Part shown: positions 19,858-43,139 of the stretch, piece by piece
Layout: each line of letters starts with the position of its first letter
Numbering within the stretch: the stretch's first letter is position 1
DNA from: Psammoneis japonica
Taxonomy: Eukaryota
Reading direction: 5' to 3'
Assembly (NCBI GenBank): GCA_008632985.1
Contig: QPGO01000301.1
Span: forward strand, 1-64,000
DNA length: 64,000 bases
Position numbers and translations under genes: made by a program
The notes under the pieces: generated by a model
Told to the model about the DNA's origin: nothing
What the model saw: the letters and a program-made list of their open reading frames with translations, nothing else
Database searches by the model: none

Positions 19858-20482
19858 AGGCCCTCGACGATTTGACAAGGAAAGACATTGCCTTGCAGTG
19901 ACAGTGGCAAGCTTTGTATGATCTGAGGCCAGGCACAGATCAAATGCGGGGAGGGACATGGACCACGATCCGGGCTGTGGACAAAGAAGCTGTGGCAAGA
20001 GAAAGGGTCCTGCAGTTGGCATTGCAAGTCAAGGCACAATTGGTGGCTGTCAACCAGCCTGACCACAGCACCGACTTTCAGCAGGTGATTGTGGCTGCCA
20101 GGGAACATTTCATGGCACAGGATGACCAAATGGACCGTGCAAGTGGACACTGCATAGAATCCATGAGGAAGCAATTTCTCCAAAACTGCACACATCTGAC
20201 TTTGCCAATTCTGAAAGGATCAAATTCATCATGTTTGCAAGAAAGAGTGAGGAAATCACTGTGAGTGAATGACAGATTGACACACGCATCCTGTTTTAGA
20301 AACAAATCTGACCAGCACTTCCTTCTGTCCTGTGCAGCCCAAACAAACAGGGCCTTTTCTTGCACTTCTGCTGCTCCTGGACATTCTTCATAAACCAAAG
20401 CATTGTCCCCAATTGCTTCGACAGGGACAGTGCATAACTCAGGTGAGTGCTGAGTCTTCTCAGGCATTGAAAGCCAGTTGTT

Positions 20483-23400
20483 TCATTTGTGATCAAGCTG
20501 CCAGCAACCAACCAAGTCTGCATGCTGATGCCGTTGCCTCACAGTTCTCTGGTCAGCTTGACAAGCAGTTGGATGGACCACTGCAAAAATCGATCCTGTG
20601 TCTTCCTGCACGAAAAAACACAGCAAATGGGAGGGAAACTGTTGATCGCCCTTTTGTGTGCCAAAGGTCACACAGGCAAAGTCATGCCATGGTCCTTTGC
20701 TTTTGCAATTGGGGTGCGCACGGCACGCATCCCTCCCATTTGCATTGCAAAACTCTGTCTTGCAAGTCAGGTGTGTGTTTTCACTGTCTTCACCAACACA
20801 ATCCTCCCACTTTTCCGACATGAAGTTCAGCAACACAGGATGAACTTGGCAACGAGCGTGCAAGCTGTTCCACACAAACGTCACAGCGCTGATCCCTTGG
20901 TTGCAGGTGAGAGTGGACACACTTCCTCCCAGCATGTGATTGTCCGTCCTGACTCTTGATGATTCCTTTTTCCCATTTGGCAAAATCCAGCCATTGGCTG
21001 AAATTGCGGCGTTGAGCCTCATTTGGTCCTCCACACATGACACGACCTGCTTCAGAAAACTGTTGAGGTTGCATTGTTGTGTGGCAGATGACGGCAGTTT
21101 GAAAAAGTCTTTCAAGAGACATTCCCCCAAGCCTGCGTCAAAGTTCATCGCATGTCGGCAACAACAAAGAAACACTGGGAGATGGAGTGTTTCATGAAGC
21201 TTTTGAAGCTTCCACCCGCACCCTTCTGTTCGCGGGACAAATTGCACCACCCGGTCAATGAGGAGACGGATTTTCTTGTTCATTTTCTGAACAGATGAAC
21301 TGGGAGTTACGCTTGTGATGGGTGGATCGCCTGGCCTGTGCCATGCGTGGAAGACAAGAAGGTCCTCGAGCAATTAAATGAATTGCCGGACGCTGCAGTC
21401 AAGTCTTTTTCCCTTGTGTCCTCAGCCTCACTCTCCTCTTTCTCATCCTCATTTTCGTCCCAGTCACCCTCTTCGGACTCCTCCGACCTTTCATCGTCAG
21501 AGTCGTCCAAGCACTCACCAGGTTGGCAGCAACTCTGAAAGTTTGCTTTGGGTGTCTTGCGATTCTCTGGAACAATGGGTTCGTCTGCGTCCTCGTCAAG
21601 GAAGCATGACTCACATGCGTTTCGTCCCTCGCTGGCCAACAGGAGAAGGTAGAAAACAAAAGCCATTCCAGCCCAGCAGTGAGAGTTGAGGAAGGCAAGC
21701 GATGTTGCTCCTCCTTTGAAGTTTGTTCGCAAAAAGGATGCTTTGTAAGTTGACCGGTGATTGCTGAAAATCCTTTCCACTGTGCTGTCCACCTCACTTG
21801 CGACCACAGGTGTCATGCTGTCTACAAATGAATTGATTGCCCTTTTCAAGGTGCCGTTTTCAAAGAGATGCATCATGTCGCTTGCTGTCGCAAGGGCAAT
21901 GCCCCATGGTTGTGCGCCAAAGTCTGCCTCAAAAAGACAGTTGGCAGGTGCGTTGTGTTGCTTGAGGCAATGCAAGATGCCCAACCAGTGCTTCCTTTCT
22001 TGGTCTGATCTGTTGTTGTTGTTGGCCTTGGTTTGCACTTGGTGGAGATCCAGTCCTCGGATGAACTCGCATTCAATCCATGGGTCGTCCAGTTTGTTGA
22101 AGCCAGTGAGGCAAAAACAACAGCAACGTTGACGACAGTTGTGACCTCCGTGTCGTCCGACAAGACAGTCGCCGCTTTTTGCGTCTCCTATGATCAGAAC
22201 GATCAGCGGGATTGCATGGAGGTGTTGCATCTCATCCCCTCGTTGCACGCATGTTTTCATGCCTCCTTTTCTCATGACTTCCAAAAGTGGCTCCAAAATG
22301 ACACGCAAGCAAGTGTGGCAGTCTCTTGACGAGCGTCCCTTCTCCGCCTTGCGATTGTTTGAGAGATTCTTTGCCGCAGATGACGACATCTTTTCCAAAT
22401 CCGGGAGACAACCAATTGGTTTCCAGACACTCTTGTCCGACCATTTGTTGAAGGCAACATGCGCAGAGGTCATGATCACTGGTTCTCCGCAATGTGATCC
22501 CATCCCTTGTGTCCTGCCAGTCTTGTCGAGGTGAATGACATTGCACTCAAGAAATTGTTTCTCCGGGTCAGTTGTCCGTTCTTCGTGACTGCGCCTGCAC
22601 CACTCACCCGCCAAAAGGCACTTGTCATCCGGTCCCTTTGCTTTGCACTTCCCAAAAGAACAGTCTGGATTGGCCATGTTCTCTCTGCTGCACCGCAGGT
22701 GAGGATCGAGCAAAAACTGTTCCCAAACCTTTGTGAAATCCCATCTTGGCACTGACACTCGTTTTGGCAAACCGGTTTTGAAATTTTTGGTTTCTAGAGT
22801 GACAGGAATGGACTCGCTGGGTGGAAGAGGGAAATGCTCAGTTAAGGTGCGCATCAACTCTTTTCTCCTTGGCAGAACTGCACCAAGCTCAATGTTGCTG
22901 TTGCCAGTGTGCCTCTCAATGAAATCAACAATGCAGTCACACAATTCCAGGGGAGCACCACGTGTGTCCATGAGCTTCTTGCACAACTCTGTGCAAGCTC
23001 CATCAAGATTTGTCAAAGAGGGAGCAGAAGCCAAGGCCTCTTCTGCAGGAGCATCATGCCTGATCCCCAAACGTTGATCCTCATCATCAATGTCCTCTTC
23101 CTCCTCCATTGTCACGTCCAACACTGCAGCAAAGGATTGACCACCGCCAACATCCAAATCGTTCATTGCCAAAAGTTCAACTCCTTGCATGCTGTGGTTT
23201 GATGAAATGGAGGACATGTCGTCCATTCCGTGCGGCGCGTCATCCAGGGAGGGGAACAAGGGGCTGCTGCTTGGATCACTCGTTGAAGATCTTGGGAATC
23301 TGCTGTGAGTGGATCGCCTTGGATGGGATTTGTCATCATCAGAGGACAAAGAGGAAGAACCACCGCTTTCTTTGGGTGGCCCCTCCATTGTGGCAGGAGT

Positions 23401-23487
23401 GTCACTTTGATCTGGGATCAGATCTTGGGTTTGCAACTCTTGGGCAACTGAGTGACACGTTGGTGAGTGTCTCCAATGGCAGGCCAT
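20483..23487 (-). mobile_element. Plavaka-like transposase, frameshifted near 21.37 kb and hypermutated
   Basis: IHLDKT...GEPV...WKPIGCLP...CHTCLRVILEPL...LIIGDAKSGD...SDMMHLFENG...WKLQKLHETLH...NFDAGLGE...CRAHPNCKSKGPWHDFACV follows the Plavaka motif order, with Y>C/H. Confidence 0.72.
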
Positions 23488-23990
23488 TCACAAAAAACTT
23501 TGGCCACAACCGGGGCAGAGAAGAGGGTTTCCGTCCATTGTAAATCAGACAACATTGACAGGGCCTTCATCAAGACTCATGCTTGTTGTCCTTGTCTTGT
23601 GGATGAGAAGGGAAAAAAAGAACAACACGCAAAAAATGGCGGGAAATTGGCAAACATTGCATCATCTTGCAGATTTGGATGATTCTCACAGGCATGACGT
23701 GTCTGCATTTTGACATTTTATCTGGCATCCACAATGAATGTTGTGCTTTTCATTCACTGTCAAAATGCAGGATGTCATCTCCGTTGAAATGCAATGACAG
23801 CCATGTCAAAAAGCAAGTTGGACCATTCGTTGTTGTGTGCAAATACATTTTCAAATTTCAATGTTGCTGACAACAATTTGTGCAATGTCACAGAGAAAAA
23901 TAGAGTGCCTGGCTGTCTCAACATGACCCAAACGACGGTTGCACTGTCGAACAGTGCCACTCCTCTCATTGTTGCCGTGAAAAGATCAAG

Positions 23991-25294
23991 ATGTCGTCTC
24001 CAGCACAACTGGCAAAGAAGAGAAAGAAAAATGAGACCATTGAGCCAATGAGCCCGAGACTTCAGGCAGTGTTGAAGAGAACAGGTGCGCAGGCAGCGCA
24101 TGGTGCATTGAAATCTGAAGCAGAGAAGGTGGCTGGAAATGATCTCTTTCCACAGGTGAAGTTTCTCAGTCCATCAGAATTGGCAAGCAATGGGAACATC
24201 TCAATGTTTGTCAAGAAACAGATTGCCAGTGGCAACATGGACACTTCAAATTGGTCAGGAACTTGGGAGGAATGGGCAAAAAAGGTGGTAAAAAGGCAAA
24301 TTGACAATCGCAGAAACACGGTGTGTTCGGCCATTGGGGCGGAGGCAATGGCCCGTAAGCCAAGTGACCAATGTGTGTGATTCGAGAGTTGCGCACATCT
24401 CACAAGAAGATGACGGTGATGCTTTGTCTGTGCAGGCGTTGTCACTGAGGAAGAGGGAAAGGAAAAAGAAAAGAAACTCAAGGCGGCAGACAGGAGGAAA
24501 AAGCAAGGCAGGAAAAAGTCAAGCCGTGACAAGAATGAAGAGAATGACATCCCGTTTGTGCCGACATGGGATCCGTTTAGCCTGGACACTGTCACCGGCA
24601 GCAAACGAAGGTACAAGCAGGCACACAAGTGGTTCTGTGATCACATCCTGCCTCAAACCAAGCAAAAGCAGGCATGGAGCAGCACCGTCAAAACTGGGAA
24701 CGCACAGGTCTCACAGTTGTTTGTGGTCGGTGACGAAGCTTTGGCGCCATTGGCTGTGGAGAATCATTGGCAGGTTTGGGCACACAGGAACAAGGAGGAG
24801 GCGGTGGAAGAATTGGGTGAGGAAATGGAGCCCAAAGAAACAAGGCCTGCCCCTCGTGCACGAAGCCAAAGAAACAACGAGTGTCTTGGGGAGACGACGG
24901 AATCAATCGGTTCAACGATTCACACAAAGAGGTGACGAAAGATGGAGACTCCAAGGAGGGCAAGGAGTTTGAAAAGTGGCACGCGGAGATCAAGAAAAGC
25001 GAGTGCGAGAAGTCTGGAGAAGCAAAAAAGAAGAAAAAGAAAGCACCGGCCGGTGACACGGATGAGGTGAAGGCAATGAACAGCCCAATGGTGGAGAGCA
25101 GCAGGGATGATGACAGTGATGACAATGAGCAGGAGGAAGGTGCAAAAGGCAAAACGGATGACGGAGGAGACAAGTCCAATGGAGATGAGTCTGATGATGA
25201 TCGTCAGCTCAGTTTGAGAGTGTTGTGGCAAGAAAATGTGCACACAGTTGACATGGCACTCAGTCATTGCACTGCAGACGTAACAAGGGATTGA
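23991..25294 (+). pseudogene. Fragmented accessory ORF divergent from the Plavaka-like transposase
   Basis: Consecutive frames (LFPQVKFL...WEEWAKKVVKRQIDNRRN; KWFCDHILP...DEALAPLAVENHW; SWGDDGINRFND; acidic tail) with the same TA-lost/CG-kept state as the transposase. Confidence 0.5.
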
Positions 25295-26124
25295 CCCAAC
25301 CGATGAAATGCTTTTCTCGTTTAAAATGATGTTTACGAAAATTGACAAACCAAGGATTGTGCGGCAATGCAATCACGCATTGGCATGTGGCAACAAGGTG
25401 GAGGCAGACACAGTGATGTGGACACAGTGAAAAATGGCACACATGATTCTCAACAAGTTGTTGCAATGTTGGCACAGCAAACTTGCAACCAGAGGTTGGC
25501 CTTTCATTGCACAACAACAATTTTTTGCAACATTTTGACAAATTGTCATCATGCAAATCTACACATTTTTAACATTTCGTGCACTCTGATGAACAAGCCT
25601 TGCCAAGCAGCAGCAACACTGATGTTCACGACCATGTCCTTTTGGCACCTTGCAGCAACAACAAGATTTAGAACACCCCAACAAAAAGAGCAAACAAGAC
25701 ACCTCACAAGATGCCAGTCCTTGGCATTTTTGGGATGATCAAGAAGATGATCAACCCACCCAACTAGATTGTGCTGCTTGTGATGTCCTGTCAGCAGAAG
25801 GCTGTGGTGTGACATGATGTGGCAAATCAATGCCGTTTTCATCAACGACACTCAAGATGCCAGACAAGACATGATGAAACAAGTTCAAGAGGTGTGCCAT
25901 TTCTGTCAAATGTGGATGTGCATGTGCCCAACATTTGGACATGGCAAACATTGCACAACAAAGTCAAATGTTCAAGTGGGAAAAAAGAGAAAGCAGCAAC
26001 CAGCAGTGACCAGCCAAGCCAGTTTCCTCTAAGGCGGATGCATGACTGAATGAAGCATGGCTGGCTTGGAACAAGGATTGCTGCATGTGCCATCATGGTG
26101 AATGATGAATTTGTGGCAGGCCAT

Positions 26125-26155
26125 CATGTGTGTGTGCATGCATGTGTGTGTGTGT

Positions 26156-26188
<33 letters not shown>
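26125..26188. repeat. TG/CA mosaic microsatellite followed by a G33 run
   Basis: catgtgtgtgtgcatgcatgtgtgtgtgtgt then 33 G. Confidence 0.85.
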
Positions 26189-26191
<3 letters not shown>

Positions 26192-27511
26192 CAGCTGGCA
26201 CAGGAAATCTCTTTCAACAATCCAATGCCATGCAAATGCGTCATGTCATGGCACTTGTCTTGGCCTGTCTGGGAGTTAAATTGACAACACTTGACCTGAC
26301 CAATGTGCTGCCATGCAGGATTGGTTGCCATGAGATTGGCCAAGATGCAGGGCAGTGCCAGTGCAGAAACTGACTTGATGGTTTGGGGCATGAGACATGC
26401 TGAACACAGCCAATGCCTAAAGGATTTGTTCTTGCAACAGGCACTGCTGCAAAGCACCAATGGCAAAGCACCCATTGTCTGGATGTGTGGACCCAAATCA
26501 GACTGGAGCTTCTTGTTGCAAATGACGACACAAGTTGTGGTGGTGGATGCTGTCCCATTGTGATTGCAGCTTGCAACATTTGAGGTGTGTTGACATGCTC
26601 CTGATGAACATCATGCCTGCTGTTGGATCAACCACATGGATGTCCCCATTTCCAACATGTGCTTTCCCAATGTCACACAGGCAAAGCACAGCATCGCACC
26701 AGTTTGAGTGGAAACCAGGTTGGCACCAATGTCAGCAAATGGGGCAACTGCCTCCCCACATCTTGCTCAGTGCCTCACAGGCCAAGATGCTCTGCAAGTC
26801 TTCATGAATGGAGCCATGGTTGGGCTGCCCTTGGGTCCCTGTGATTGGCACATGACAGAATGCCACCAAATCATCCAAGCCAAGTTGGTGACTTTTTGTT
26901 GGAGCCCACCACCATGGATGGTGCACCAAATGGCAAGGCATGCTTCCTGCATGGGTCTGCACTCTGGCATTGCAGGGAAATGAAAAAGTGCGTGCAGCTG
27001 GCATGCCAAAGCATTGCCAACCTTGTCAAGCCAGTGGTGGGTGTGGCAACATTCCCGCCAATGCTGAGTCCTCCCTGAAAAGGACACGTGCACATGGAAG
27101 GACACAACATGCATGTGATGCTTGCTTTGACAATCCAGGCTGAGGGTTGCCCAACACCTGACATTGTCAGCATCATGTCAGGACAAAGACACCTCACATC
27201 ATCAGAGGGCAATGTTGATGATGAAGAGGATGCTCTTATCAAGGACATGCCACTGGCACTTTCACAGATCCACTTCTTGTTGCTCTTCTTTTTGTCCTGG
27301 CACTCCCCATGTTTTGACATGGAGAGGAGTTGCAATTGCTTGGCAATGTCTTTGAACCACTTGCCAAGGCTGGCCTTGTTGGCAACATCATTGTGGGTTC
27401 AAGATTTTGCCAGTGTGAGCTGGACTTTTCAGCAGAGTCCAAGGCAATGCATGGTTTGCCCTTGCCAATGACAGCACTGGAAGTGACAATGCTGCACAGT
27501 GAAGCAAGAGT

Positions 27512-27538
27512 GGCCTGTTCCAGCTCCAGGTGCTCCGC
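27512..27538 (+). repeat. Left TIR
   Basis: ggcctgttccagctccaggtgctccgc is the exact reverse complement of 43113-43139. Confidence 0.95.
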
Positions 27539-28199
27539 TTTTCATCACGCTGGATTTTCCACGCAGTTTTCAGCACCAGACATTTTTGTCTCCACCCGGC
27601 AGAGCTCGCACTTTTTGGCTTTGTGCAAACATTGATCATTTTAATGACGCAATGTGTTTGTGATGTCAACGCTCATGCACAACAACTGAGGTGCATGATG
27701 CGTCACAGGAAGAATCGTGTCAGTTGGCATTCAATGTTTTTCTGGCAATGCGCAGAACAATGCTGACTTCTACGAACACGTGCCGTCCACCCCACACACA
27801 CCAGCCACAATGCAGCACACCGCTGTCACCGCTCCACAACCCCCTCTTTGCCCTTGCGGTTGCATGGAACTGCCTGTTCCTTTCATTTCAAAGTTGCGTC
27901 ATTGTTGTCGCAACACGATTGCGGCTCTAAAGAGTTGCTGTTGTTGCGGACAACACCATCTCTTTGCATTCTCTCGTTTCGAATTCGGCAAGTCATTCTG
28001 TCATGTTTTTTTTTTAACGCGTCACCGCGTGCGTGCATTTTTCTGGTTGCTTCTCACGTGTCGTTTTATGGCTGTTTTGCACCAGGGCCTTTGGAATTTC
28101 TACAAAACTCAAGCATTCGCCTGAGCGTTCTCCGAGTGACAGTTGCTGCTGGAACAAACTTGTCTTGGTTTGTTTTCACTGTGACGCTTGCTGTTTGTA

Positions 28200-28441
28200 C
28201 TTTTCAGCATCTGGAACTGCCTTGGAGGCTGCCTCTGTTCATCCATGTCACTTTCGCAGCAACTGACGTTGGCCCCCTCTCTGGAGTGCATTTGTCGTAC
28301 AAGCGGGAGTGCAGCTCACTGTTTGACACTTTTCAGCATCTGGAACTGCCTTGGATGCTGCCTCTGTTCATCCGCATCACTTTTGCAGCAACTGACGTTG
28401 GCCCCCTCTCTGGAGTGCATTTGTCACACAAACAGGAGTGC
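28200..28441 (+). repeat. 129-bp-period tandem duplication upstream of the cargo gene
   Basis: cttttcagcatctggaactgccttgga...ggagtgc occurs at 28200 and 28329. Confidence 0.9.
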
Positions 28442-29801
28442 AAAAGCAGTGCATTCGCCATGGACACGTTGGCCAAAGTAGCCTCCCAGCAGCATCCCGT
28501 TGGTGGCAGTTCTCCTCAAGCCAATGATGACTCTTCCAGCACCTTGAAGGTTTCCTTTTGCATCCAGCGTTGCGTCGAGGCACTCGCGGAACATTGCCCA
28601 CCGCAGGGCAAAGCCAAAACTTGGTGCACTGTGCCTCTCCAAGATGCAGTTGATCCTCTTGAGTGCCCTCAAGGTCTTGTAGATTTTAGCATCTTGACCA
28701 CAGAAGATTGTGGAACAAAGAAGACGAGCCCTCTCTTTCATGTTCTTCATCACAAGAATGGCTTGGATGGGTTCAACAGTGCCAAAACACGGAACATGTT
28801 CCGCAACACTGTTGTCGATTGGTTTTGTGAAAAATTTTACTCCGAGAATCGACCGCAACTAAACCAGTGCATCAAGGACAAGAACCAGCACCTCTTGATG
28901 TTGGTTGTGGTGCCATCAGGAATGTCGATGAGGGACGCCGTGAAGGACAAGCAAAACATTGCTGCTGTTTTGATGCACCATGTCAAGACAAACATTGGCC
29001 TGCTTGTTGATTGCGTCCATGTGACAGAGTCTCTGGTTGTGTCAGTTGGGACGGGCGATGAGAGTCAATCGATCGCACCGTCAAGTCGAGGTGCATGTCC
29101 TTTTTTGATTGGACTTGCCCAAGCCATTTGCTGTGGTGTTGTCAAGAAGATGGGTGCACATCTTCATTGTCAGAAGACTTTGAAGTCTCATCACATGGGA
29201 GTGATGGGTTTTGAGGACATCACGGACACCATGAGTGATCGTTCCGATCTGGCGGACATCCGCAAGCACTGGGGCTGGGATGATCTCATGATGAATGATC
29301 AAGGCAACACTGTTGCCCTGTGTGCAAAGGAGAGGATTACTCCAATGAGCTCTGCAATTGTTTTGGCCTTTCCTCGTTCCAGCGCCAAGCATCAGAATGT
29401 TGCAACAGAGATCCGCAAGGATGAAGACTGTTGGGAGGAACCGCTTGTTGAAGGAGGATGCATTGCTGATCATTCGTGCATTGCCAAGCGCCGATTCCAC
29501 TTGGCATCTTTGGTCAACATTCAAAACCTAGAAACGTGCGATGATGAAAAGTCGACCAAAGATTTAAAGACGCATGCGTGGCTGCCTTTTGGCAAGGTCG
29601 TGTTTCAAAGTTGGCAACGAATTAAGTCTCCAAAGGGGGTGAAGAACAATTTTGAAATGTTGGCTTTGAAGGGGTTGGACGTCAAGTTCAAATGTGAAAC
29701 AAGATGTCCTGTTCTATCTGCAAAACAGCACTGGGGTTCAATCTGCAACCATTGCTCTGTTCGAAACAAAATCGCTCAGAGGAAGCAGGTGGACGAAAAG
29801 C

Positions 29802-29985
29802 TGAATAAATGCTGCCATGACAGCTGAGAATTGGGTGCAAGACAAGACAGAGTGTTGAACAGCATCAACAGGTTCTAGAATTGTGAGATGTTGCGCTGCT
29901 GGGGCCACTGAATGAGCGACAGTGGACCAATTGCCAACAGTGCATAAACTGCCTACATCTGTGACAGTGCATCAGCATTTGTTCA
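29802..29985 (-). repeat. Copia 3' LTR
   Basis: Direct repeat of 36315-36498. Confidence 0.95.
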
Positions 29986-30136
29986 GTCCCCTCGAACTGA
30001 CACTGGCTCCGCTCGGGTCAAATCGACAGACAAATGCAACCTGATGCTGCCCTGTTCCAGGGCAGCAGTCATGTTTTGGGGGTGGGAAAAGCTGCACCTA
30101 CGCGGCAAACCCGTTTGGTTTGTCCCCTTTTGGGAC

Positions 30137-33100
30137 TCACCACAGGATGTGACTTATGATTTCCCGGAGCTTCGGTCCAGGCAACAACTTGGTCAGTGCG
30201 TCCGCCAGATTCGTGCGTCCGTCTTCCCAAGCAATGCGCACTGTTCCAGCGGCTTGTGCCTCGCGAGTCCTGTGACAGGCAATTGCATTGTGCTTCTTCT
30301 TCAAAGTGGACTCTGGTTTGGTTGAGTTCTTGAAGACAGCTTCATTGTCACAGAAAACGTTGGTGGCCCCATCCATGGGGATTCCGAGCATCCGAAGCTT
30401 GCAGCGCAAGGCTTCGATTTGCTCCACTGCAGTCTTCATAGCCACGAACTCTGACCCAAAAGTAGAGGACTCTGCGGCATTCTGCCGCTTGGAGTGATGC
30501 AAGATGGGCGCTCGTTGGACAAATGTCAGGATCCCAGTGTGAGACCTGCATGTCACACGGCATCCGGCGTGATCAGCATCGACAAAGCAAGCAGCAGTCA
30601 CGCTGTTCCCACGTGCCTCCAGCATGTTCAGCGGCATTGGTTCAGCCGCGCCAGGGCAGTGTTCTTCCCAATCACACTTGGTGAAGCAACTCTTGTCAAA
30701 GACGGGCTCAGTGTCGTCGAACACTGGCGCAGACTCAGAGTGAGCCTTCAAGCATGCAAAGACATGGAGCACCTCGTCCAGGTGTCCAACTCATGGTGCT
30801 GCCAAGCAGGAGGACACAAGTGAGACAGCGACAAAAATGTCCACTCACCCCAGTTCAACTGCCCACCGCAGCACACCAATGAGACCTTGACAGCAGTTGG
30901 CCGTTTTGGCATTCAACTCAGGTGAACCGTCCAGTTCAGGCCTGCATCCCGAGCTCAAGGGCGTTGACGCCTTCATCGGAAGACGCCTGTCAGTTTTCTT
31001 AAGCTCTAATTCAACGTCAGCCAATGCCCTTTTGACACAAAGGTCAGAGGACACAGCCCAGCATGTCTTGCCATCCGAGTCAGACAGCTGGCACTTTCTG
31101 ATCTGGGCGCCCAAGTGCTCTTCTGGTTCGCAGACACTTCCGTCCTTGAGTGTGTGCCCAGAGCTCACACAATCCATGACCTTCTGAGGTTCATGGGAGA
31201 CGCACAACAAGTCGTCCACGTAGACAAGTGCACACTCCCAGTGCTTGAAGCCATCCGGCTTAACCGCAGCCCGCATCCAGACATCTGGGTCAGCCTTGCA
31301 AGACTCGAACCCAGCATCCCGCAGAGCAGCTGCCACATGTTCCCTAAATCTTGCACCTGAAGACTTGAGACCACACAAGGCTCGGACAATGATCACCGGC
31401 CTTCCCTCGTTCTGCTTCCCAAATTCCAGGCCAGCAGTGGTGCAACACTTTTCCCCAGTGTGTGCGTTCAAGCAGGCATTCTGAACATCAGCACTCAGGA
31501 CCTCCAGGTCATTCAGAGCTGCCACAGTGAATGCCATCCTAACACTGTCACGCGACACCACACTGGAATGTGTCGATTCCTCAGGTGGATCGGTTTGATG
31601 GCCTCCGGCCACGAACCTCGCTTTACGTTGGAGGGTGCTCTTGATGTCAAAGATCACATGACAATCAACATGTTTGCACCCGACCGGTGCAGTGTCGTCA
31701 TCGCGGAATTCGAACGCAGGCATGACGTCACGCATTTCCTTCTCAACAGCCTTGAACCAGAAGTCGGTCCCCGTTCTGTCATCTGTTTCCACAGCTTCCT
31801 CAACAGATTTCGGGAGTTCAATTCTGAACTCATGCGCACGTTTCCAGCAACGCGACTTGACTTTCTTCAGGATCCTTGATCTGCGACGCAAGACGTCTCG
31901 GACCCACCAATTGAAGGCTGGTTCACTGGCTGCTTTGTTCGCTGCAGCGTGCTCAGCAACCTCGACTGGATTGGACTCCTTCAAATCCTTGAGAGGAACC
32001 CAGGATGCAGTCCCTTCCTTCCACTCGACTTGTGGGTCCCAACCTGCGGTCGTCCTCCTGGGAGCACGCCTGCCAGTCTCAGTTGTTGTGCACCCGTCAT
32101 CGGCCGTTACGGCACGGGCATCACGTCGGTGATCGACTGTTTCCTTCATGATCTGGTGGGCATTCCCTTCAGAGTCGATCTGAGCGAACAGGTTCTCTGC
32201 AATTACGTTGGCAGTGTAGGAATCAGTGGATCCGTCAGGGAATTCCACGTCGCACATCCTCGAGTCTGGGACAGGGTTGTCGTTCCTGGCACCAACAGGA
32301 ACCCCGTCGCTGTCTTGCTTGCGTGCAATGACCCTAGCATGAGTCAGCTCGCCTCCTCGTGGCAACATGACTTGAGCTGTGAGATGTTCATCTAGCCCTT
32401 CCGGGGTGTGCTCATCAGCTTCCGGTTTGGAAGCATCGGGTTCCACGGGTTCAACGGCATCGTCCCATTCATCCATGAAGTCGTCAGGGAGTTCAGGGAA
32501 GTCAGCACTGGCACCCTTTTCTGGGATGCTAAGCCGTTTGATCAAAGCTTGATTGACCGATGCAAGATCCATCTGGATCACCGGAGTTTTAAGGTCATCC
32601 TCTGGCATGGCCCATGCATCCTTCCGAATGATGGGTTTGCCTGATTTGGGCAAAACAATGAATGCCATGTCGTCAGTGCAGTTGTCAGCTGCTCCGAGCC
32701 AACGGCCAATGCACTTCTTTTCGTGTGGGAACTCCGCCACAGGCATGCAGTGACAAACAGGTTGACACCAATCAAAGAGAGAGAGGGAAGAGATGTCGGG
32801 TGTCGAACCTGTCACCTCCTCTTCTGGGACTCGTCCTCCCATGTCCGATGTGCCAGTCGCAATGATGCGTTGGATGTCACACATCCATTTGGCGCTGTGA
32901 GACCAAAGTTGCCTGTGAGCGCCAGTCCGGCGTAGAGTCACACGGGCTCTTTTCTTCAACTCATGAATGGATGCCTCGGCTGGGTTCTGCCAGGGGCTGC
33001 ATGGGGTGGACACCTCCTGGTGTGTCCTGCATTCCTTGCAGATCTCTTTGGTCTGGCCTTCTGCCATTTCCGGCGCGCCATCCGACACAAGGACCTGCGG

Positions 33101-34248
33101 TGCGCCAACGTCATGCACAAATGACATGACGGCATCCGGGTGGTCCTGTCTCCTCTTCCAAGGACAGAACCTGTCATGCCCTCTTCTGTTGGTAAATGCG
33201 CTTCCTCCCATCTCGCCATGTGTCGATTTGACCTTTGAAAACATCTGGTCGGAGTAGAATCATCCCTTGACAGCAGGGAACTTAAGCCAAGGGGCTTTCT
33301 TCCAGACTTTCTGTTCGGATGGTGTGCAGACATTACGGACCCCTGCCTGGGTCGTCACTCTGAGGGCATTCTCAGCGGCTGTCAGGCCAATGTGCCACCT
33401 TTTAGAGAGTGTCTTGGGCATGATGGTCGATGCACGACTCGAGGTCGACAGTGCATGCACCCGTTTCCGCTCGGCACAATCCGGGTGGACATCTGGGTCA
33501 CACCGGTCGTGTAGCCCGTCTCCCTCAGTGTCTTTGTGGGAGACATTTGCCTGAGCAACCAGGCGGTGATACAAAGAATCGTCGTCATTGGCATCCATGA
33601 TGACATTCTCGTCATGATGGGATGTTTGGCATGAATGAATGGAAGCGACACACCTGGTCGCATTCATCATCGTCGACCATCCGTCCGACTTTGCTGATCC
33701 TTGGCGCACACTGGCACATGCACGCGCTTCCTCCTTTTGCGCCAGGGCATCAGCAGAAGGCTCCCATCTCAGGGGTGATGCAAGTTCCAGCCGGGGGGAG
33801 GTTCTCCAGATCCTCCTTTGTTGGCTTGTGTGAATCAAAGACTGGGGCAACACCTCGCATTCGCAATGGCACCCTGATCTTTGAGTCAGGAAAAGAAATG
33901 GAGTGCGTGCCAGTCGGATCAAACTGGCGAGGGGCATCGTGGACAATCAGCCCATTCGCTCGCAGTTGGTTGGGGCATGGGAGGGTGTCAGTCATCTTGT
34001 CCCCGAAAAAACACAGCCTCGTGGACCAGCAGCAGGTGTGGTTGTCCATCAGTTGGATCAACCCACACAGTGGCAGCCGTGCAAATGGGAACATTCTCCA
34101 TTGGTGCATGCTCTTCGGAGCAGGGGTGTACCACGACAGTTCTGTCGATGTCAGAGTGCATCACAAAATTGGACCCAACAGCACACGTGTCAGCGTGCGA
34201 GTCCAAATCAGTGGTGGCTTCATCATCTGAATTCCCAGCAGATGACAA
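30137..34248 (-). pseudogene. pol: Copia pol: protease, integrase, RT, RNase H
   Basis: DLDSHADT; SKRWHIG; LVSDGAPE...PWQNPAEASI; RKARFVAGGH, ADVQNACL, RALCGLKSSG, LVYVDD; FVDADHAG, ESSTFGSEF, FCDNEAV, NLADALTK; several frameshifts/stops. Confidence 0.95.
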
Positions 34249-34347
34249 AGAGATGTGTGTGTCCTTTGAGAATCGCCCAGAGAAACAAACAGTGCCAGCA
34301 GGTTTAGCAACATTTGGTTCTGTGCCTTTTGGTGCTGGCGCAACTGT

Positions 34348-35811
34348 TCATTCCTCATTCTGAGGTTTCTCATGTGTGCTGCGTCCAAACTGGGCACCTG
34401 CATTGGCGGCAGGTTTGTCAGGCTCTTCGGAGTCTTTCGGCGCATCAGCAGGTTGAGGAGCAGGCTCGGCAACAGCCACTTTCTTCACAGTGCGAGTTTT
34501 GGTGTCGACCGACTCAGCTTCCGAGGACGCAGCAGCAGCTTTGCGTTTCTTTTCGGCCTTCTTAGCATCGCGGAGCTTTTGGACTTGCTCTCGTTTGGGA
34601 CTGCAAAGAGCTTTCCACTCTTCAACAGGACAATGGCCTGCCCAGATCCTGGGCTTGTCCTTCTTAGGTTGGTGCTTCCCACCAGGGTTGCTGCGCCGAT
34701 TGTTGCGGCGTTGGATGGATGCGATCCCGCTAGTGTCAGCATTGCGGTTCTTGGCATTCTCGACCAGAGTTTTCACACACTGCTGGCATGCCTTGAAGTC
34801 CGCTAGCTTCGTTGGGTCTCCATCCACTGCGCTCTTGCCAGTTTCCAACCTGGGGTCAGAGATGCCCTTCAGAAAGTCAGAGACCTTCTTGGCCTCGGCC
34901 ACCAGTTCATCAAGCTCAGACAAGTCATTGTGAGCCTTTTGATGACACTGGGTGCACTGGTCAAAGGTAAATCGACCCCATCCGGTGTGCTTCGCGGCAG
35001 CAATCTGTGCACAAGCACGGTTCTTTCAGGCAGTGGTGGCAGCCGATCCTTCCGCCTGCCTCTCAAGTGCGAAGAAAGCAGTGCGACCATCGCGGTTGCG
35101 ATTGGAAGGTTTGACAAAAGCCCATCCGGGCCCCCCTGTCACTGACTTCTTCAAGAGATCATACAGACGTTGCCTGTCCTGCACACACTGAGCTCCTGCA
35201 AGGCGGGCAGCAGCAATGGGGCACTCGTCAATGGCAGTGCAGGTGGCAGCCAACATCTCGGTGGTGACCTCTTCATGTTCCCCAGCTGGGTGGATGAGGG
35301 GCACTCCAGCAATGGCACTGCGGTGGTGACGTAGTTTGGTCTCCAGCAGCTCTTGGAAGGCAGGCCAGTCGCATGGGTTCTTGAGCTCCACGGCCATTTT
35401 GGTGGCCAATTCGTCATCTGAGTCAGCGGACTTGAATTGCTCCAGTTCCGTGAGACGTGCCGTCCATGTTCCAATGACGTCGCCAGCAAAGAGAGCAGCG
35501 GTCGGCTCTTGGTTCCGGGCTCTGCGGTGGTCAATCCATGCACGCAGTGCCTTGAGCTTGCGATTCGCCAGGTGTGGGAAGCGGACTTGGGGGTCAGCGG
35601 CGGTGTCCACGCTCTTCACAATGCCCTTGGTCATGTCGGCAATTTCCGTCAAAGGGACCTGTCCAGGTCCTCGATCGCAGCAAAGCCTTGGCGGGCCATG
35701 TGGGTGCGCGTCTGCGCATTGTATCCACAATGCGCAAGACAGGCGGTAAAGGCTGCGGCAGCGGCCATGGTGCATCAGCAGTTGTTCGCGTTTCGACGCG
35801 TGAGCATCCAC
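34348..35811 (-). pseudogene. gag: Copia gag
   Basis: Between the 5' LTR and the protease; KLKALRAWI...GPGWAFV...DGRTAFFAL; KKVSDFLKGISDPRLE. Confidence 0.8.
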
Positions 35812-36314
35812 TTGTGTGAGTGGAGGAAAGTGAGAAAAATGTGTGGTTCTCGTGCCGATTTGGCGGTTTCTACTTAGCGAACCCGCGAGCAGGCGGTGTT
35901 ACCCCCAAGCAACAATGTCCAACAGACATGCATCCACATGTGCAGTGTCCAAACAATTTGACAACGTATTTTGATTTATGAAATGCATGTGATCAAATGA
36001 CAGACCTCAATGCACAAATCATTGTGTCACACACATCACGCATGTTTACATGCCTTAGCCAACATGTTCCATCCACGAGATCAAACATTCCGTCCACTGA
36101 CGTCATGTTTAACGGATCACAGCTCTGGTCTCCAAGAGCATGTCGTTCACATCCATCAACATTGACACACATAAAGGACTCAGCGATTGCGCGAGCAACC
36201 ATGGGACCAACATGGCGCTCACCGCAAAAATCGATCGATCGCAACGACACCGTCGCACCGTTCGCGATGCCTGTTCCAGGCGATGAACATCATGGCGTGT
36301 TGGCTCTGATAAAG

Positions 36315-36498
36315 TGAATAAATGCTACCATGATAGCTGAGAATTGGGTGTGAGACAAGACAGAGTGTTGAACAGCATCAACGGGTTCCAGAATTGTGAG
36401 ATGTCACGCCACTGGGGCCACTAAACAAGCGACAGTGGACCAATCGCCAACAGTGCATAAACTGCCTACATCCGTGACAGCACATCAGCATTTGTTCA
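36315..36498 (-). repeat. Copia 5' LTR
   Basis: Direct repeat of 29802-29985. Confidence 0.95.
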
Positions 36499-38832
36499 AA
36501 GCTACGTCGAAAACCACGCATCAGCTGTGAGAAGTTGAAGAAGCCCATTGTGGACCACAGCAATGATCATGTTTTTCATGACGAGCATTGCAAAAGGGAG
36601 AAGCTTGAACAGTCGGATGATGACATGCAGGAAGATCCCTGCATTCCCAAACTTCCCACCAACGTGCCATGCAAAGTGCTCATGAGTTGCGCGAGTGGCT
36701 GCCGGAGGATTTTCTCATTTGGGCCATTCGACCCCGATGACAGACTGCCATCCGAGGCCTTGTTTGACATCATTGCAGGTTGGTGGTACAACCATGTGTT
36801 GCGGATTGCCTCTGATGGTGAGTGCAGAGGCAGCACTTGTCTGCCGGACCAGTGGTGCAGGCCTTTCAAGCCGCAACGACACTCTGAGCTGGTGGAGACT
36901 GTCACCGAAGACAAACAAATGGTTGAAGTTCACTTCCCTGCCGGACCAAGCAGGAAGGATCATTTCAAAGAGCCGCTTGCTCACCTTGCTGATTGGTGCA
37001 GGGCAGCTCCTGGACTTGCATGGTGCAAGTTTTGTTGAAGGATTCGTCACCATCGTTGCATGCATCACGCCAGTGCCCATGATGCAGGGTTGAAGGAAGA
37101 GGTGGAGGAGGAGGAAGAGGAAGAGGGGAAGGAGGGCACTGAAGAGACGGATGACCTGCAAAAGGCCGAGGCTGGCACTGCAAGGTTGCAACCAAGACAA
37201 AAACCAGGAGGAGGAAGATGGGGCCATGGATCAATCGGCTGAGGAAGATGAGGAAGATGGGGCCATGGATCAATCGACTGAGGAAGAGGAGGAAGAGGAG
37301 GAAGATGACGGTGTGCAAGACGAAATCCAGGAGGAGCAAGATCCAGAGGAAACTGAGGACGAGGAGGACAATGAACACAAGGAAGAAGTTTCTGCGGCTG
37401 CAGAACAGAAGTGAGAGAAATCCAAGACTGCCAAAGAGATGAGGGAGAAAGCCAAGGCTGCAAAAGAGAAGAGGAAGAAAGCCCCGGCTGCAGAAGAGAA
37501 GCAGGAGACAGTGGGAGATGCTGGACGCAGACGTTCGCATCAGACCTTGAAAGAAATCACTGGAGTGCACAAGGATGAGGATCTCATTGGCCTTTGTAGC
37601 TCTGTCCCGAAACCAAGGGCAAAAGGAGACACTTCATGGCGTCGGTTGACCAAAGCGCAGCAATGCCAAGAAAGGGATCGACTCGAGCGTGAGTGCGAAG
37701 ACGCTCAAGTGATGTTGCAGGTTGCCAAACTCATTTGGATTGATCCAAGCAAATGGAGCAGCAGGCATCAGCGTCCTGGCGATTCCAAAGGAGACGTTCC
37801 TCACTTGTTTGATTGCTTTGAAGGGAAAAACAAGGGCGTCATGTTGTGCAAACCATGGTTTGACATGCGGTGCAATGAAATGAACGGCCATCCCATGAAC
37901 ATGTGTGCGGGCCTCATTTTACGTGCCAAACACAAACCAAACGTTCCCCAGCAACTCAATCGAAAATGCAGGGACGAGATCAAGAACAAGGTGGAATTGA
38001 TCTGCAACCCACCACAGATTGCCAAACTGAAGAGATTGACTGAAGCGGAGATTCAAAAACTTCCACCTGTTGGGCAGGGAGCTGATTTCATTGGTTGCAG
38101 CTTGGAGGGGAACCGTCCTGTGCATGCAACCCTGGATTGGGCTGAGTGCAATTTTAAGTTTCGGCTTCCAGATGTGTGGAAAGATTTGAAAGAATTGAAC
38201 CCATCGGATGGTTGTTGCTCCTTGCCAGAAGGAAACGTGTTGATGCCATCGAACAGCAACTTGCCAACGAGCGGTCCACCCGTGAAATTCCTGCAAGGAC
38301 AAAACAACACTTGCATTTTTTCCTCCCTGGCCAGTGTTCTTGATCATGCTGGCAACGTGGAAATGAGAGACTGCATTGCTTCTCACATTCAAACATCTGC
38401 CAACTATGCCGACACTGACAACAAGCACATGTTGTTTGCAAAGAACATGTTGAATGGTCGTTTGAAGGGAAAATTCCCGCCTGAGAACTCAAACATGAAG
38501 TTTTGCGGCAGTGTGGATCGAACGAGTTCCCTTGCAGCAGGTGGTGAATTTGACGTGACGACCTGCAATGATGACTTCACAACTTTGTGCCATCTTGTGA
38601 ACAACCACTGCATTGCCTTGCACCATGGATGGATCTTTGATTCCAACCACCCTTTTGCATTGCCAGCAAAGGACATTGAGTGTTTCAATTGGTGTCTTGG
38701 GAACGAGGAACATGAGGTGAAATGCATGGCAAAAAAGCATCTGCAACAAGTGTTCATGGTGCACCAGTTCGAACTTCCTGGGGCGGTGCAGCAGAAGTTG
38801 CATGCAAAAAGGAAAGCTTTTGTGTTGGATGG

Positions 38833-41800
38833 TTAATCTAGTTGCATGACATTGCCATTTTGTTTGTCAGAATTGTCGCTGTCACTGTCCCCTGCCGCGC
38901 TCTCATCATCCTCCACAGTGTCTTCCATGTCGTCATTCTCTCCCCCCCCCCACTCACCAGTTTCAATGTCTTGTTCCTCCACCTCGTCCAAAGAGTCCTC
39001 AAAATGATCCATTGCCTCCTGCTGTCGGATGGCATCCAGAATTCCTTCATGCTCGTCATCACTCAAATGACGTGGATGAAGAAGTGAAGCCTCATTCCTG
39101 TTGCACGCACTTGGCAGTTCCAGATTGGCTGATGGTTCATTGAGCTCAATGTTGGCAGCTGCAATTTGCTTGAGCAACACTCTTGTCTTACATTCCTCAG
39201 CATCACCGGGAGTGTGCCATCCTCTGGCCCGTGGAACAGGGTTAAGATGCATTCCCTTGCAAACCCATTCACCGGCCTCAACAGTTGTGGGTGGGTCAAA
39301 CTCTTTCCAAACCTCATCCTCCTGTGCTTTGTGGGGGGGTTCATCCCATTGCAGCAGATGGAATCCCTCCTCAGATTCACAAGACAATGTGGCACAGCTG
39401 TTTGGAACAATTTCCTTGGCCATTTCCTCAGTCAGGAAGTCCAGCACAGATTTGTGAACAAACTGCACCTCGTTGGCGTCACTCTTGTCTGTTTGAATCA
39501 CCTGACACACTTGCCAATCATTCAGTCCCTCAAAGATGGGCCACAGTTTGCAAGCTCGGTTGCCACCTGCATGTCGTGGCTGCTCTGTTGGCTTGACATT
39601 TTTAACCCAAGGCCGTTTCAGCTGATCCAGGCAGGCTTCACAAGCACAAGGAATTCTTTGCATCGCAACCCAACCAATGGGGAAAAGAGGTTCAAATTGG
39701 AAATGGCGCAAGGCTCCAACGCCACAATGGCGCGTGTGCACTTGCACCAATCCAATCAACTTGACTTTGATTGAAGAGCCAAGAACTTTGTCAGCTTCCT
39801 GCAGACAATGCACCCTTTGAATTGACTTTTGAAGGGACTCCCTCTTGGCATGTTTTCTGTCACCAACTGTGCCAAAAGCATTCTTGTTCTTTGTGAGCAT
39901 TTTGCAACATTCCTTTGCACAACTGTGTGCGGCTACAACACTGTTGTCATCCATGACCAAAGCTTCAGGTCTAATTTTCCCATCCTTGTCATTGACTCCT
40001 GCAACAGTTGTGGACTGCATTTCTCAATGCATGGGTGATTCAATGCAGGCTCCAATGCCATCAACCTCTCCTTTGCCATGTCCAGGTGCTCCAATGGCAC
40101 GGTCAAACACAATGTTGCATTTGTGCGCAAAGACAGACAACAAGCACAGTGCCAAAGCACATTGGCATTGTTTGGCACAACCATCAGTGTGATCCCAAAT
40201 CACAAGCCACGCCTTGTGCAGGTTGCGGTTTTTTAACCAGGTGACAAACTTTTCCAAGTGAGCATTGGCGGTGGTGGCATCTTGCTTGGAAGAGTCAGAG
40301 AGATGCACATGATGTGTTTTCTGAAGCTCGTTGTCAACCATTGCATCGCAAACTCTTCCTTTGATTGACAATGTTCGGTTGTTGCCATGATGGTCACCCT
40401 GAACTTGGTTGTTGAACTCTGCCTTCTGATGCTCGGAGCAGTCATGAGACGTGAACAGGCTGTTGGGTGTTGACTCAAATGCTTTGCGATGCATTTCCAT
40501 GCAATGATTTTTCCCAAGAATGACCACATGGGGAAGGTGGCAGCGGAGCTTCTCTAAACTTGGAATGCAGTGCTCTTTTGTAAAGACACCGACTGGATTT
40601 CGGAACCTTGTCAACAAGGTCCTGCATTTCACCTTTGCGTCCTTGTTCCCATCTGGATCTGCCTCACAAACAGGACATGCTTCCATGTGCACACCATGCT
40701 TGGAACAACTTTTTACAGTCAAACAACATTGAAACAAAACTTGGGGCGCACTGGGACTTTCATTCTGTTCCAACAATGGAGTTGGGCAGGATGGGCAATG
40801 CTCACATTCACCCAAAACGCATTTCCAATGAGGATGATCCTGACCATTGACATTGCCACAAATGATGGTTGCAGCTGCATCTCGGGCTTTGGGATGAAGG
40901 TGATGGCCGTTGGGGCCAAACGCTTCCTCTTGACAAACACGCATTGTTTCCTCCAATTTGCCAAGGGCACTGTCATGGTTCTCCAAGTTCTCAGGATCCT
41001 CACTTGCAAGCTTCAGCCGATTTTGCTCCACCTCCATCTCTTTTAAAAGCTTCCTTCGAAACCTGTTCAATGCATCTTGTAGAAAATTGGCATTGGTGCA
41101 ATTGCTGCATTGACACATGCTGCATTGACTTGCGTTCATTTTTCGACACTGCTTGGGAATCAAAAATCGAAACATCGTGTCACTGATGAGGGTCTTGCCA
41201 TTGGCATCACGTGCATGTTTGAATCCGCCAACAGACACAGGCTTCAACATGTTGTTGTGCAGCTCACGCATGGACACATTGCGCAACCATTTGTTCACTT
41301 GTTTCTTGTTTCCATCTTCATCTTTAATGAGAATCATGTCTTGTGTGTTGGGAGACTGCACTGTGTCGGGATGATTCGACAACCAGTGCACAAATGCCTT
41401 TCGGATCTCAGGGGAAACTTTGTGAGGACGCCGACGGGGTTGCACTGAAGACCACATGACATCGTCAGTGTTTGAAAGCAATGCCTCTCTGGCAATCTTT
41501 CCCTTCTTCATTTGGCAACAAACAGTGCTCCATCTCAGGCCAAGTGCCTTGGCGCAGTCATGGGAAGACAACTTTTCCTCTTCAGCAGATTTTTCTGGTG
41601 AACTGGAGATTCCAGTTGCAAGAGCACGGACAAACGATTTTTTGTCGTCGGCGAGGTGTTGACCATTGCTGGTGTCATTGGCACGTGCCCACATTTTGCC
41701 CAACTGCTTGGCAATTTGCAAGGCCGCAGCATTTGTTTTCGGCAATGTCAAGCTGCAAGCCTGAAGAAATGGGGCCATTTCGGGAAAATGCAAAGCACAC

Positions 41801-42795
41801 ACAAACGCACAGATTTGTTGTTCTTGAGTGGCGGCGCAAGATGACACTCCTTCTCTCACTTTAACTGCTGCACGATGAAGTGCCTGTTGGGGATCTTTGT
41901 GGGTTGCTTCAACTGCATGAGGATTAAAAGTGGGGCAACCTTGGGAGGCGGTGAGGTTGACAGCAGTTTGGTTGGCCGAAGCGACAGAGGGAGTGACGGC
42001 GGCATTGTCAGAGTTGGGGTTGGAGGGAGTGGCGGCCGCTCCTGCAGTGTGCATTTGGGAGGGGGCTGGCTGTCTTGGCAAGGACGACCCTGGACAATGA
42101 GTGGGGTGTTCCTTGGAGGTGTTCAGGTTGAAAGCAGCCAGGTCGGCGGGAGCAACGGAGGGAGTGACGGCGGCATTGTCAGAGTCAGGGTTGGAGGGAG
42201 TGGCGGCCGCTCCTGCAGTGTGCATTTGGGAGGGGCCTGACTGTCTTGGCAAGGACGACCCTGGACAATGAGTGGGGTGTTCCTTGGAGGTGTTTGGGTT
42301 GAAAGCAGCCAGGTCAGTGGGAGCAACGGAGGGAGTGACGGCGGCATTGTCAGAGTCAGGGTTGGAGGGAGTGGCGGCCGCTCCTGCAGTGTGCATTTGG
42401 GAGGGGCATGGCAGTCTTGGCAAGGATGACACTGGACAATGAATGAGGTGTTCTGTGGAGGGGTTCGGGTTGAAAGCAGCCAGGTCGGTGGGAGCAACGG
42501 AGGGAGTGACGACGGAGGCAGCAGAGCTCGGGTTGTTTGGATTGAAGGGAGTGGCTGCAGCTGCTTCAGCTGCAGCAACGACATGGTCGGAGACCGTGGA
42601 GTGTGTTTCAAGTTCACAACAAGGCTTCTTGTTTTTGCTGTTGCCAGTCCCTGACTTGTGTCGATGGCCAACTCCATTTTGCTTCTTCCTCTTGTTGCCC
42701 ACGATGCACTGGAAATTTGATTGAAAGTGTGCGTCGAGAGGGCGCTGGTGGGTGAGACGGATGGCAAGTCGAGAGGACACATTTTTTTGGCACAC
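38833..42795 (-). pseudogene. Sola2-like DDD transposase, frameshifted at ~40.03 kb
   Basis: CQCSNCTN, CVLGECEHCP, HDCSEH (DYSE-like), HLSDSSKQD, HTDGCAKQC (DGCAxQY), APGHGKGEVDGIG. Confidence 0.78.
41985..42560 (-). repeat. 171-bp (57-aa) coding tandem repeat, ~3.3 copies, in the transposase N-terminus
   Basis: SQMHTAGAAATPSNPDSDNAAVTPSVAPTDLAAFNPN... repeated; anchors at ~42158, 42329 and 42500. Confidence 0.9.
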
Positions 42796-43112
42796 TCAAT
42801 CAAATTAACTGTGTTGTGTCTGTAGAAATGATGCATGTTCGGACGTCAGTTGAGTTGAAGAAGACCAAACACACGAGCTCCGAAAAATGAAAAAGTGAGT
42901 GATCACGAGCATTTTTCACGTAGAATGGGACACCAGCCGAAAATCACATTTAGCACAATTGACTCCTTCATTTTTGATCATTTCGAAAATCGAAAGGTAA
43001 GTGTACACCCGAAAACACATGTAAAGTGTACACTTGCCCTTCGATTTGGCAAAAAACGGATTTTGAAAAAGTTGTTTGCGCCAAACCTAAAAATGATGGG
43101 AATCGAACCCAC

Positions 43113-43139
43113 GCGGAGCACCTGGAGCTGGAACAGGCC
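43113..43139 (-). repeat. Right TIR
   Basis: gcggagcacctggagctggaacaggcc. Confidence 0.95.

Follow-up and report, generated by a model that had tools for sequence, protein, structure and literature searches.

We examined a 64,000-nucleotide stretch of DNA from Psammoneis japonica (assembly GCA_008632985.1, contig QPGO01000301.1, positions 1 to 64,000 of the forward strand; hereafter the window) and focused on a Copia retrotransposon whose two long terminal repeats (LTRs) differ from each other in an unusually restricted way. The element is a degenerate Ty1/copia LTR retrotransposon on the minus strand, with 36315-36498 as its 5' LTR, a correction to an earlier note. Its features, by position in the window, were the following:

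29797..29801, no strand: target-site duplication AAAGC, with its second copy at 36498-36502, the first A of which is also the last LTR base
29802..29985, minus strand: 3' LTR in element sense, 184 bp with TG..CA ends, from the MAFFT alignment
29986-29993, minus strand: purine-rich stretch resembling a polypurine tract, GAGGGGAC in sense orientation, adjoining the 3' LTR end at 29985
30140..33796, minus strand: degenerate pol of 1219 codons, interrupted in frame by 3 TGA stops, with RVT_2 inside
34159..35898, minus strand: gag-like frame upstream of pol, 580 codons with 2 TGA stops and no Pfam match
36300..36314, minus strand: stretch resembling a primer-binding site, seen in the sequence (sense ..TTTATCAGAGCCAA), adjoining the 5' LTR
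36315..36498, minus strand: 5' LTR in element sense, 184 bp

The Copia-type reverse transcriptase (RT) domain RVT_2 (PF07727) was detected in the minus-strand frame 30845-33259 (E 1.1e-10; 42 bits, with a cut-off of 31.6), and 397 relatives contained the same domain. By tblastn, 120 related proteins were collinear with the element over 1240 residues (sense coordinates 2236-6359, with two frameshifts), and about 2.1 kb separate the 5' LTR from the start of this homology. Pfam returned no integrase domain in the read-through pol, and among the 120 relatives listed PF00665 was present in 1. The 580-codon frame, which ends in a protease-like DSHAD motif and encodes 2 Tyr versus 18 Cys and 22 His residues, is probably a long gag. 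Among the matches listed, the closest named relatives of pol came from the diatoms Fragilaria crotonensis and Nitzschia inconspicua; the protein searches recovered no protein of the same family, the best match at near length having 61% identity and the best of the shorter proteins 72% identity over 20% of the pol query. The 36300..36314 stretch resembles what we take to be a primer site of the initiator tRNA-Met type.

The empty-site joint (29796 to 36498, with 5 shared letters) was recovered in two contigs of run X1, and together with the flanking AAAGC it therefore indicates a single insertion with a 5-bp site duplication. Both Copia flanks were covered by many X1 contigs; a plus-strand open frame of 686 codons (27767-29827) runs into the near LTR and another frame (36478-37038) leaves the far one. 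The Copia element seems to have inserted into another repeated element, itself poor in TpA.

The MAFFT alignment of 29802-29985 with 36315-36498 comprised 184 columns and 0 gaps, and its 17 base differences, transitions throughout, fell into 12 sites. Five of these were adjacent doubles in which one copy has CA and the other TG, hereafter swaps (LTR positions 37-38, 91-92, 96-97, 112-113 and 167-168). At another three (positions 69, 131 and 159) CG in one copy faced CA or TG in the other, and the 36315 copy had the CG every time. The remaining four combined TA with TG or CA, the TA lying in the 36315 copy at positions 13, 20 and 109 and in the 29802 copy at position 75. All this agrees with the sequence-only reading of the locus, which had counted 12 sites with no indels or transversions, had divided them into the same five swaps, three CG-type and four TA-type sites (with four pentamer pairs, all found in the alignment), and had pointed out that each LTR keeps TA at some site where the other has lost it. 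It had also noted that the terminal inverted repeat becomes perfect if TG is reverted to TA; the arithmetic is right, as the comparison of TGAATAAATGCT with the reverse complement of AGCATTTGTTCA left a T/C at position 5 as the sole mismatch.

All 17 changed bases were located in pyrimidine-purine (Y-R) steps, which make up 104 of the 184 LTR bases. Among 200,000 random placements of 17 positions, such complete confinement occurred with a frequency of 2e-5, and 5 adjacent Y-R doubles were obtained in none (the maximum was 4, reached 47 times). The pattern of differences is real and far from chance.

We determined the direction of change in the coding region, where the 120 related proteins were placed on the element. 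This analysis used the codon columns at which 40 or more relatives could be compared and 80% or more of them agreed (n=470, with the window agreeing at 406). Only 2 of the 20 conserved Tyr columns were kept, while 13 had become Cys (TGY) and 5 His (CAY). Columns for other residues were retained almost completely (Phe 17/17, His 12/12, Cys 4/4, Gln 6/6 and Trp 16/17), and 0 of the 39 conserved His, Cys, Gln and Trp columns had changed towards TA or CG. Counted as steps from the nearest codon, 26 of 28 A>G changes were preceded by T, 12 of 13 T>C changes were followed by A, and 11 of 13 C>T or G>A changes lay in CpG. Conserved Arg columns were still CGN in 19 cases and lost to CAN or TGN in 8 (CpG 8/27 lost). 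Correspondingly, the Tyr share of pol was 0.33% versus 3.63% in the relatives (range 2.51-5.15), and that of Cys 3.86% versus 1.25%.

The second line of evidence came from a gene outside the element. Part of a DTW-domain gene (5932-6524) has a diverged copy in TpA-poor DNA:

7732..8339, no strand: diverged duplicate of the 5932-6524 part of the DTW-domain gene, 73% identical, in a TpA-poor block

The gene part contained 17 TA and 35 CG, and the duplicate 0 TA and 3 CG. In the aligned steps all 12 TA changes went one way (TA>TG 10, TA>CA 2, reverse 0), and CG had become CA or TG at 30 places with 3 changes in reverse.

The third was composition. The Copia element had 57 TA in 6697 bp, a TpA observed/expected ratio (o/e) of 0.16, with sense-strand ratios of 1.69 for TG and 1.37 for CA. 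Of the 64 one-kb bins of the window, 47 had ratios of 0.00-0.22. Together these depleted bins cover about 48 kb and form three contiguous blocks with about 3-5 TA per kb overall; their TG and CA ratios were 1.3-2.1 (bin mean at least 1.34) and those of CG 0.06-0.84. The three blocks were:

361..3812, no strand: TpA-poor block, 2.9 TA per kb
6750..47929, no strand: main TpA-poor block of about 41 kb, 3.6-5.3 TA per kb, holding both LTR elements
52925..55778, no strand: isolated TpA-poor island, 3.2 TA per kb, with normal DNA on either side

Normal blocks had 25-53 TA per kb, a TpA o/e of 0.35-0.94 and a CG ratio near 1.0. They contained host genes (a P450, the DTW-domain gene, an M64 peptidase/CBM96 gene and a kinesin), and the kinesin gene at 57145-58857 had its closest named relatives in Epithemia and Attheya, at 48-51% identity. 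A search of protein clusters with the kinesin yielded generic kinesin clusters only, without informative taxa. As matches from records without a species name went no higher than 55-61% identity, the source looks diatom-like, with its own proteins absent from the database, and Bigelowiella natans is an unlikely origin. Non-coding DNA of the normal blocks was not depleted either, as in the bin 52001-53000 (o/e 0.94), in which a TA microsatellite and a block boundary are about 170 bp apart. By block-by-block annotation, the depleted DNA was mobile or unannotated while the host-gene blocks were spared: we found there the Copia element, a second LTR element, a weak match to a Plavaka transposase and much DNA without annotation. 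Eighty related Copia loci from metagenomes had a TpA o/e of 0.46-0.89 (median 0.69), and since neither these loci nor the gene blocks are depleted, the depletion belongs to these blocks of this genome and not to Copia elements generally.

Conserved codons, the gene duplicate and composition are three independent tests, and they agree in indicating that TA is the ancestral state, lost and never gained, as the sequence-only reading had supposed. GC-biased gene conversion was rejected, the changes being confined to TpA and not spread over all A:T pairs, as was selection against TA, conserved tyrosines of the catalytic domain having been destroyed.

The meaning of the swaps was approached through the second LTR element, which has a site duplication of its own:

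16665..16942, no strand: left LTR of the second element, 278 bp with TG..CA ends and site duplication AGGCC
19580..19857, no strand: right LTR of the second element, 278 bp

This element (16665-19857) is non-autonomous, and most of its interior is taken up by a tandem array of 42-bp units (18708-19547) within a 624-codon open frame that has no Pfam match. Its LTRs differed by 26 bases, comprising 8 CA<>TG doubles, 6 CG-type and 2 TA/TG differences and 2 transversions, and 17 CpGs were intact in both copies. With so many CpGs kept in both, double hits at CpG cannot explain the 8 swaps.

We fitted a two-hit model with four classes of site (kept, single, opposite-strand double and hidden same-strand double). 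A TpA origin of the swaps was ahead by 15.8 log-likelihood units for the second pair and by 16 jointly (pTA 0.76, pCG 0.17); with the losses from the coding region of the Copia element (TpA 18/20, CpG 8/27) it was ahead by 6.6-17.5 units. A single-step exchange of CA for TG was seen in at most 1 of the 39 conserved His, Cys, Gln and Trp columns, and a direct one-step CA>TG process is thus unsupported by the conserved columns. On this modelling, each swap is best read as a single TpA of the ancestor that was hit on one strand in the first copy and on the other strand in the second, and we infer that the five in the Copia LTR derive mainly from TpA. An ancestral LTR with 12-17 TpA per 184 bp would be dense but not unusual, given that related terminal repeats had 11-117 TA per kb.

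Differences outside TA- and CG-type sites amounted to 2 in 462 aligned bp across the two LTR pairs, and the estimated per-copy loss was 0.76-0.90 for TpA versus 0.17-0.30 for CpG. From these values TpA would mutate at about 300 times, and CpG at about 40 times, the background rate, with wide uncertainty. The terminal-repeat pairs of 20 related loci had a different spectrum, with 131 transversions and 62 other transitions beside 30 CG-type and 25 TA-type differences and a single swap; many of them are contig-end overlaps or may be different copies joined, and they serve as a control for the spectrum only.

Taken together, the comparisons indicate a process restricted to TpA and CpG that acted on both strands, after integration and within sharply bounded blocks. 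A loss after integration and on both strands had been proposed in the sequence-only reading, and it is borne out by the second LTR pair, which repeats the pattern beside its own site duplication; the same reading had disfavoured one-off RNA editing or RT error, and LTRs that differ while each keeps TA lost by the other support it in this. We consider that a TpA-targeted mutation process acting at the DNA level in transposon-rich blocks, accompanied by slower CpG decay, accounts for these data (rough probability 0.8). The two LTRs, identical at insertion, would each be hit independently afterwards. The A of a TpA, or the T by way of the other strand, would undergo transition, turning TA into TG or CA; a hit in one LTR would leave TA opposite TG or CA, hits in both LTRs on opposite strands would leave a CA<>TG swap, and hits in both on the same strand would be invisible. 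CpG would be lost more slowly alongside (CG to TG or CA), as from deamination of methylcytosine. As has been proposed for Bigelowiella natans, an enzyme may deaminate the adenine, and the resulting hypoxanthine would then be read as G.

Several observations weigh against this account. Applied to the Copia LTR by itself, the two-hit model did not discriminate, and a CpG origin of the swaps was ahead by 1.3 log units. Loss was uneven: 3 TpA were kept in both Copia LTRs, which hold 4 and 6 TA per 184 bp, more than the internal region with its 47 in 6329 bp. The coding-column test spans the whole lineage leading to this copy, and some of the loss it records may predate the insertion. The excess of Tyr>Cys over Tyr>His (13 vs 5) on the sense strand was only suggestive (P=0.096), and a runs test gave no significant clustering of events by strand along pol (P=0.13). 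The polarity of the 12 LTR sites is an indirect one, taken from codons, duplicate and composition; a degenerate 30-nt LTR pattern, which recovers both LTRs of the window, had 0 matches in the metagenome contigs. At 36324, TA was a minority state in X1 (6 contigs, depth 534 of 3133), readable as either gain or loss of TA. Finally, X1 has no recorded library type and is no proven independent check of the sequence.

Variation within the family was followed in the X1 contigs, of which 7615 aligned to 29500-36800 at 80% likeness or more, 1053 of them at 99% or more. Their variable places comprised 1383 transitions versus 169 transversions. At 36248-9 the family was divided between CA and TG, with 0 contigs carrying just one of both changes. 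At 36293-4 the second base was A in at least 88% of the depth, with CG at no more than 12% and TA at no less than 22%. The 36272-3 site was about 86% CG with CA and TG minorities, as at an ordinary CpG site. Every X1 contig differed from the window at 21 of the places listed, mostly not of Y-R type, and these look like subfamily markers that give no direction.

Among the alternatives, the one closest to adenine editing places the lesion on the T of TpA, for instance where an enzyme oxidises it to 5-hydroxymethyluracil or to a base with further modification, which would mispair with G and yield T>C on either strand. TpA is palindromic and the two targets have identical outcomes in sequence; the dependence of the depletion on flanking bases, described below, denotes an extended preference and is silent on which base is hit. 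In dinoflagellates, hydroxymethyluracil replaces thymine at TpA. Sequence gives the T target no advantage over adenine deamination, however, and we regard it as unlikely, though it is the alternative we would discard last. The sole study of such a signature proposes an adenosine deaminase, without experiment (bioRxiv 10.64898/2026.01.13.699255).

A technical origin, in which modified TpA in the blocks was miscalled as TG or CA by the base-caller of the assembly and no mutation took place, is much less probable. The assembly platform, like the X1 library, is not on record, and of the words sampled from 28500-37500 just 0.38 are present in X1, which leaves some room for an artefact. Nevertheless, 1053 of the 7615 X1 contigs match the stretch at 99% or more, and the X1 contigs themselves vary between CA, TG and TA at the same sites (e.g. 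36293-4 and 36248-9). Conversion has gone almost to completion, with different outcomes fixed in one LTR and the other, and the relative degree of CpG- and TpA-type change differs between elements, as expected of history and not of read-time chemistry.

A purely cytosine-based process would have CpG decaying to TG or CA, swaps arising from CpGs hit in both LTRs, and TA as a derived state produced as in fungal repeat-induced point mutation (RIP). CpG decay is indeed real here (11 polarised CpG events, 8 of 27 CGN Arg codons lost, CG o/e down to 0.06); the swap counts of the Copia LTR taken by themselves lean slightly that way, by the 1.3 log units given above, and the X1 family is mostly CG at 36272-3. 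A RIP-like change of CA to TA would enrich TA, so CpG decay combined with such a change is ruled out: TA is nearly gone (o/e 0.16 in the element, 0.00-0.22 in the depleted bins), 0 of 39 His, Cys, Gln and Trp columns have turned into Tyr or into a stop with TA, against losses at 18 of 20 Tyr columns, and the pol stops are TGA in 3 of 3 cases. The second LTR pair, moreover, has its 8 swaps despite 17 CpGs retained in both copies. On the codon columns, composition and the DTW duplicate, the cytosine-only model is refuted as the main process, and we give it very little credence.

A contribution from change before integration, by editing of the transcript or RT errors copied into DNA, would suit the commoner A>G on the sense strand (Tyr>Cys 13 vs Tyr>His 5; TG o/e 1.69 vs CA 1.37), but LTRs that were identical at integration now differ and each keeps TA lost by the other, both strands are hit, and the DTW duplicate and tens of kb without retroelement signature are depleted equally. 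The LTR differences, as we read them, refute change before integration as the only cause, and it is the least credible explanation of all.

Other properties of the TpA-poor DNA were recorded along the window. CpG was nearly gone too (o/e 0.06-0.26) at 1001-3000, 8001-15000, 26001-27000, 44001-48000 and 54001-55000, and the other TpA-poor stretches, both LTR elements included, had a CG o/e of 0.6-0.8. This uneven loss of CpG fits a TpA loss that is faster than CpG loss in blocks of different ages. The depletion of TpA varied with the flanking bases: the depleted/normal ratio per bp was 0.007 for ATAT, 0.034 for ATAC/GTAT, 0.43 for TTAA and 0.46 for CTAA/TTAG, on small numbers (ATAT 1 in depleted vs 52 in normal DNA; TTAA 48 vs 38). 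If the blocks had an equal starting composition, this flank-dependent survival may reflect the extended preference of the mutator.

The island at 52925-55778 is 2.85 kb long. Its boundaries are sharp to within some 100 bp, terminal repeats were not detected, and a (TA)n run survives just outside it at 52720-52756. The Plavaka transposase match lies on the minus strand at 21307-23487, in a 726-codon frame, and is weak (E 1.5e-5; 24.9 bits, with a curated cut-off of 26.3). An uninterrupted run of 33 G occupies 26156-26188. Stop triplets in the window numbered 258 TAA and 204 TAG versus 1385 TGA, and 48 open reading frames (ORFs) of at least 80 aa overlapped the Copia element (region 29500-36800); stop-to-stop ORFs were abundant in all six frames because TAA and TAG are rare.

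The TpA-targeted process, if correctly described, has practical consequences. LTR pairs and gene/duplicate pairs would provide a simple genome-wide assay of its rate and context. Insertion dating by LTR divergence, ORF calling and repeat detection would be badly biased in such genomes, and gene callers will over-predict in TAA/TAG-poor DNA, where long false ORFs abound because these two stops are nearly absent. It would also extend TpA hypermutation to another major algal lineage, and to ordinary transposons and not just integrated viruses.

We consider more tentatively, and with rather less than even confidence, that diatoms or close stramenopiles possess a dedicated genome defence that edits the adenine of TpA on the DNA of silenced transposon islands. 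Such an editing system would be to A>G change what RIP is to C>T change in fungi. Occurring in Rhizaria as well as in stramenopiles, it would have either an ancient origin in the SAR lineages (stramenopiles, alveolates and Rhizaria) or more than one origin. It would purge mobile DNA of tyrosine codons, of the stops TAA and TAG and of motifs like the TATA box, within a period too short for ordinary mutation to alter LTR pairs in other ways.

In the literature searched, from which most subscription journals were absent, no report of a TpA-loss signature in diatoms was found, and the 2026 preprint on B. natans is so far the only report of TpA-targeted A:T>G:C hypermutation. According to that preprint, the A>G and T>C changes that arose in mutation-accumulation lines of this alga in an integrated giant virus and in a virophage all fell on TpA, at about 1000 times the genome rate (bioRxiv 10.64898/2026.01.13.699255). 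The same text describes clusters in the genome that are poor in TpA and rich in CpA and TpG, with a modest depletion (virus region Rho 0.45; 124 clusters of at least three 1-kb windows), an enrichment of RT and DDE domains in the TpA-poor coding sequences, and an ADAT2-like candidate enzyme (bioRxiv 10.64898/2026.01.13.699255). The likeness to the window lies in the confinement to foreign or mobile DNA and in TpA depletion with CpA/TpG enrichment in clustered windows; the rate, too, would be far above background, at about 300-fold by an indirect estimate from the LTR pairs. There are also differences. B. natans is a chlorarachniophyte (Rhizaria) in which new mutations were measured, whereas here the process is deduced from sequence, with relatives of diatom type; the window is near saturation, with 0-5 TA per kb over about 48 of 64 kb; and the targets here are LTR retrotransposons, with the process revealed by LTR-pair divergence and coupled with CpG decay.

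Fungal RIP is similar in being transition-only, in inactivating repeated or mobile DNA in place, in its dinucleotide preference and in its sharp regional footprints. It differs in that RIP changes C to T mostly at CpA, creating TpA and lowering GC, whereas here TpA is destroyed and GC rises; the TpA excess expected from C>T at CpA was absent, with a TpA o/e of 0.16 and 0 of 39 columns changed towards TA. The CpG decay of methylated transposons is matched by CG>TG/CA changes, which the Copia LTRs, those of the second element, the Arg codons and the DTW duplicate all have, but it explains a minor part of the pattern, with 3 of the 12 Copia LTR sites for certain. The ADAR and ADAT deaminases have a 5' U preference (cited in bioRxiv 10.64898/2026.01.13.699255). 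Their A-to-I editing shares with the process described here the A>G outcome and the T or U before the A; these enzymes act on RNA, whereas here the change is a heritable one in DNA that has hit both strands since integration.

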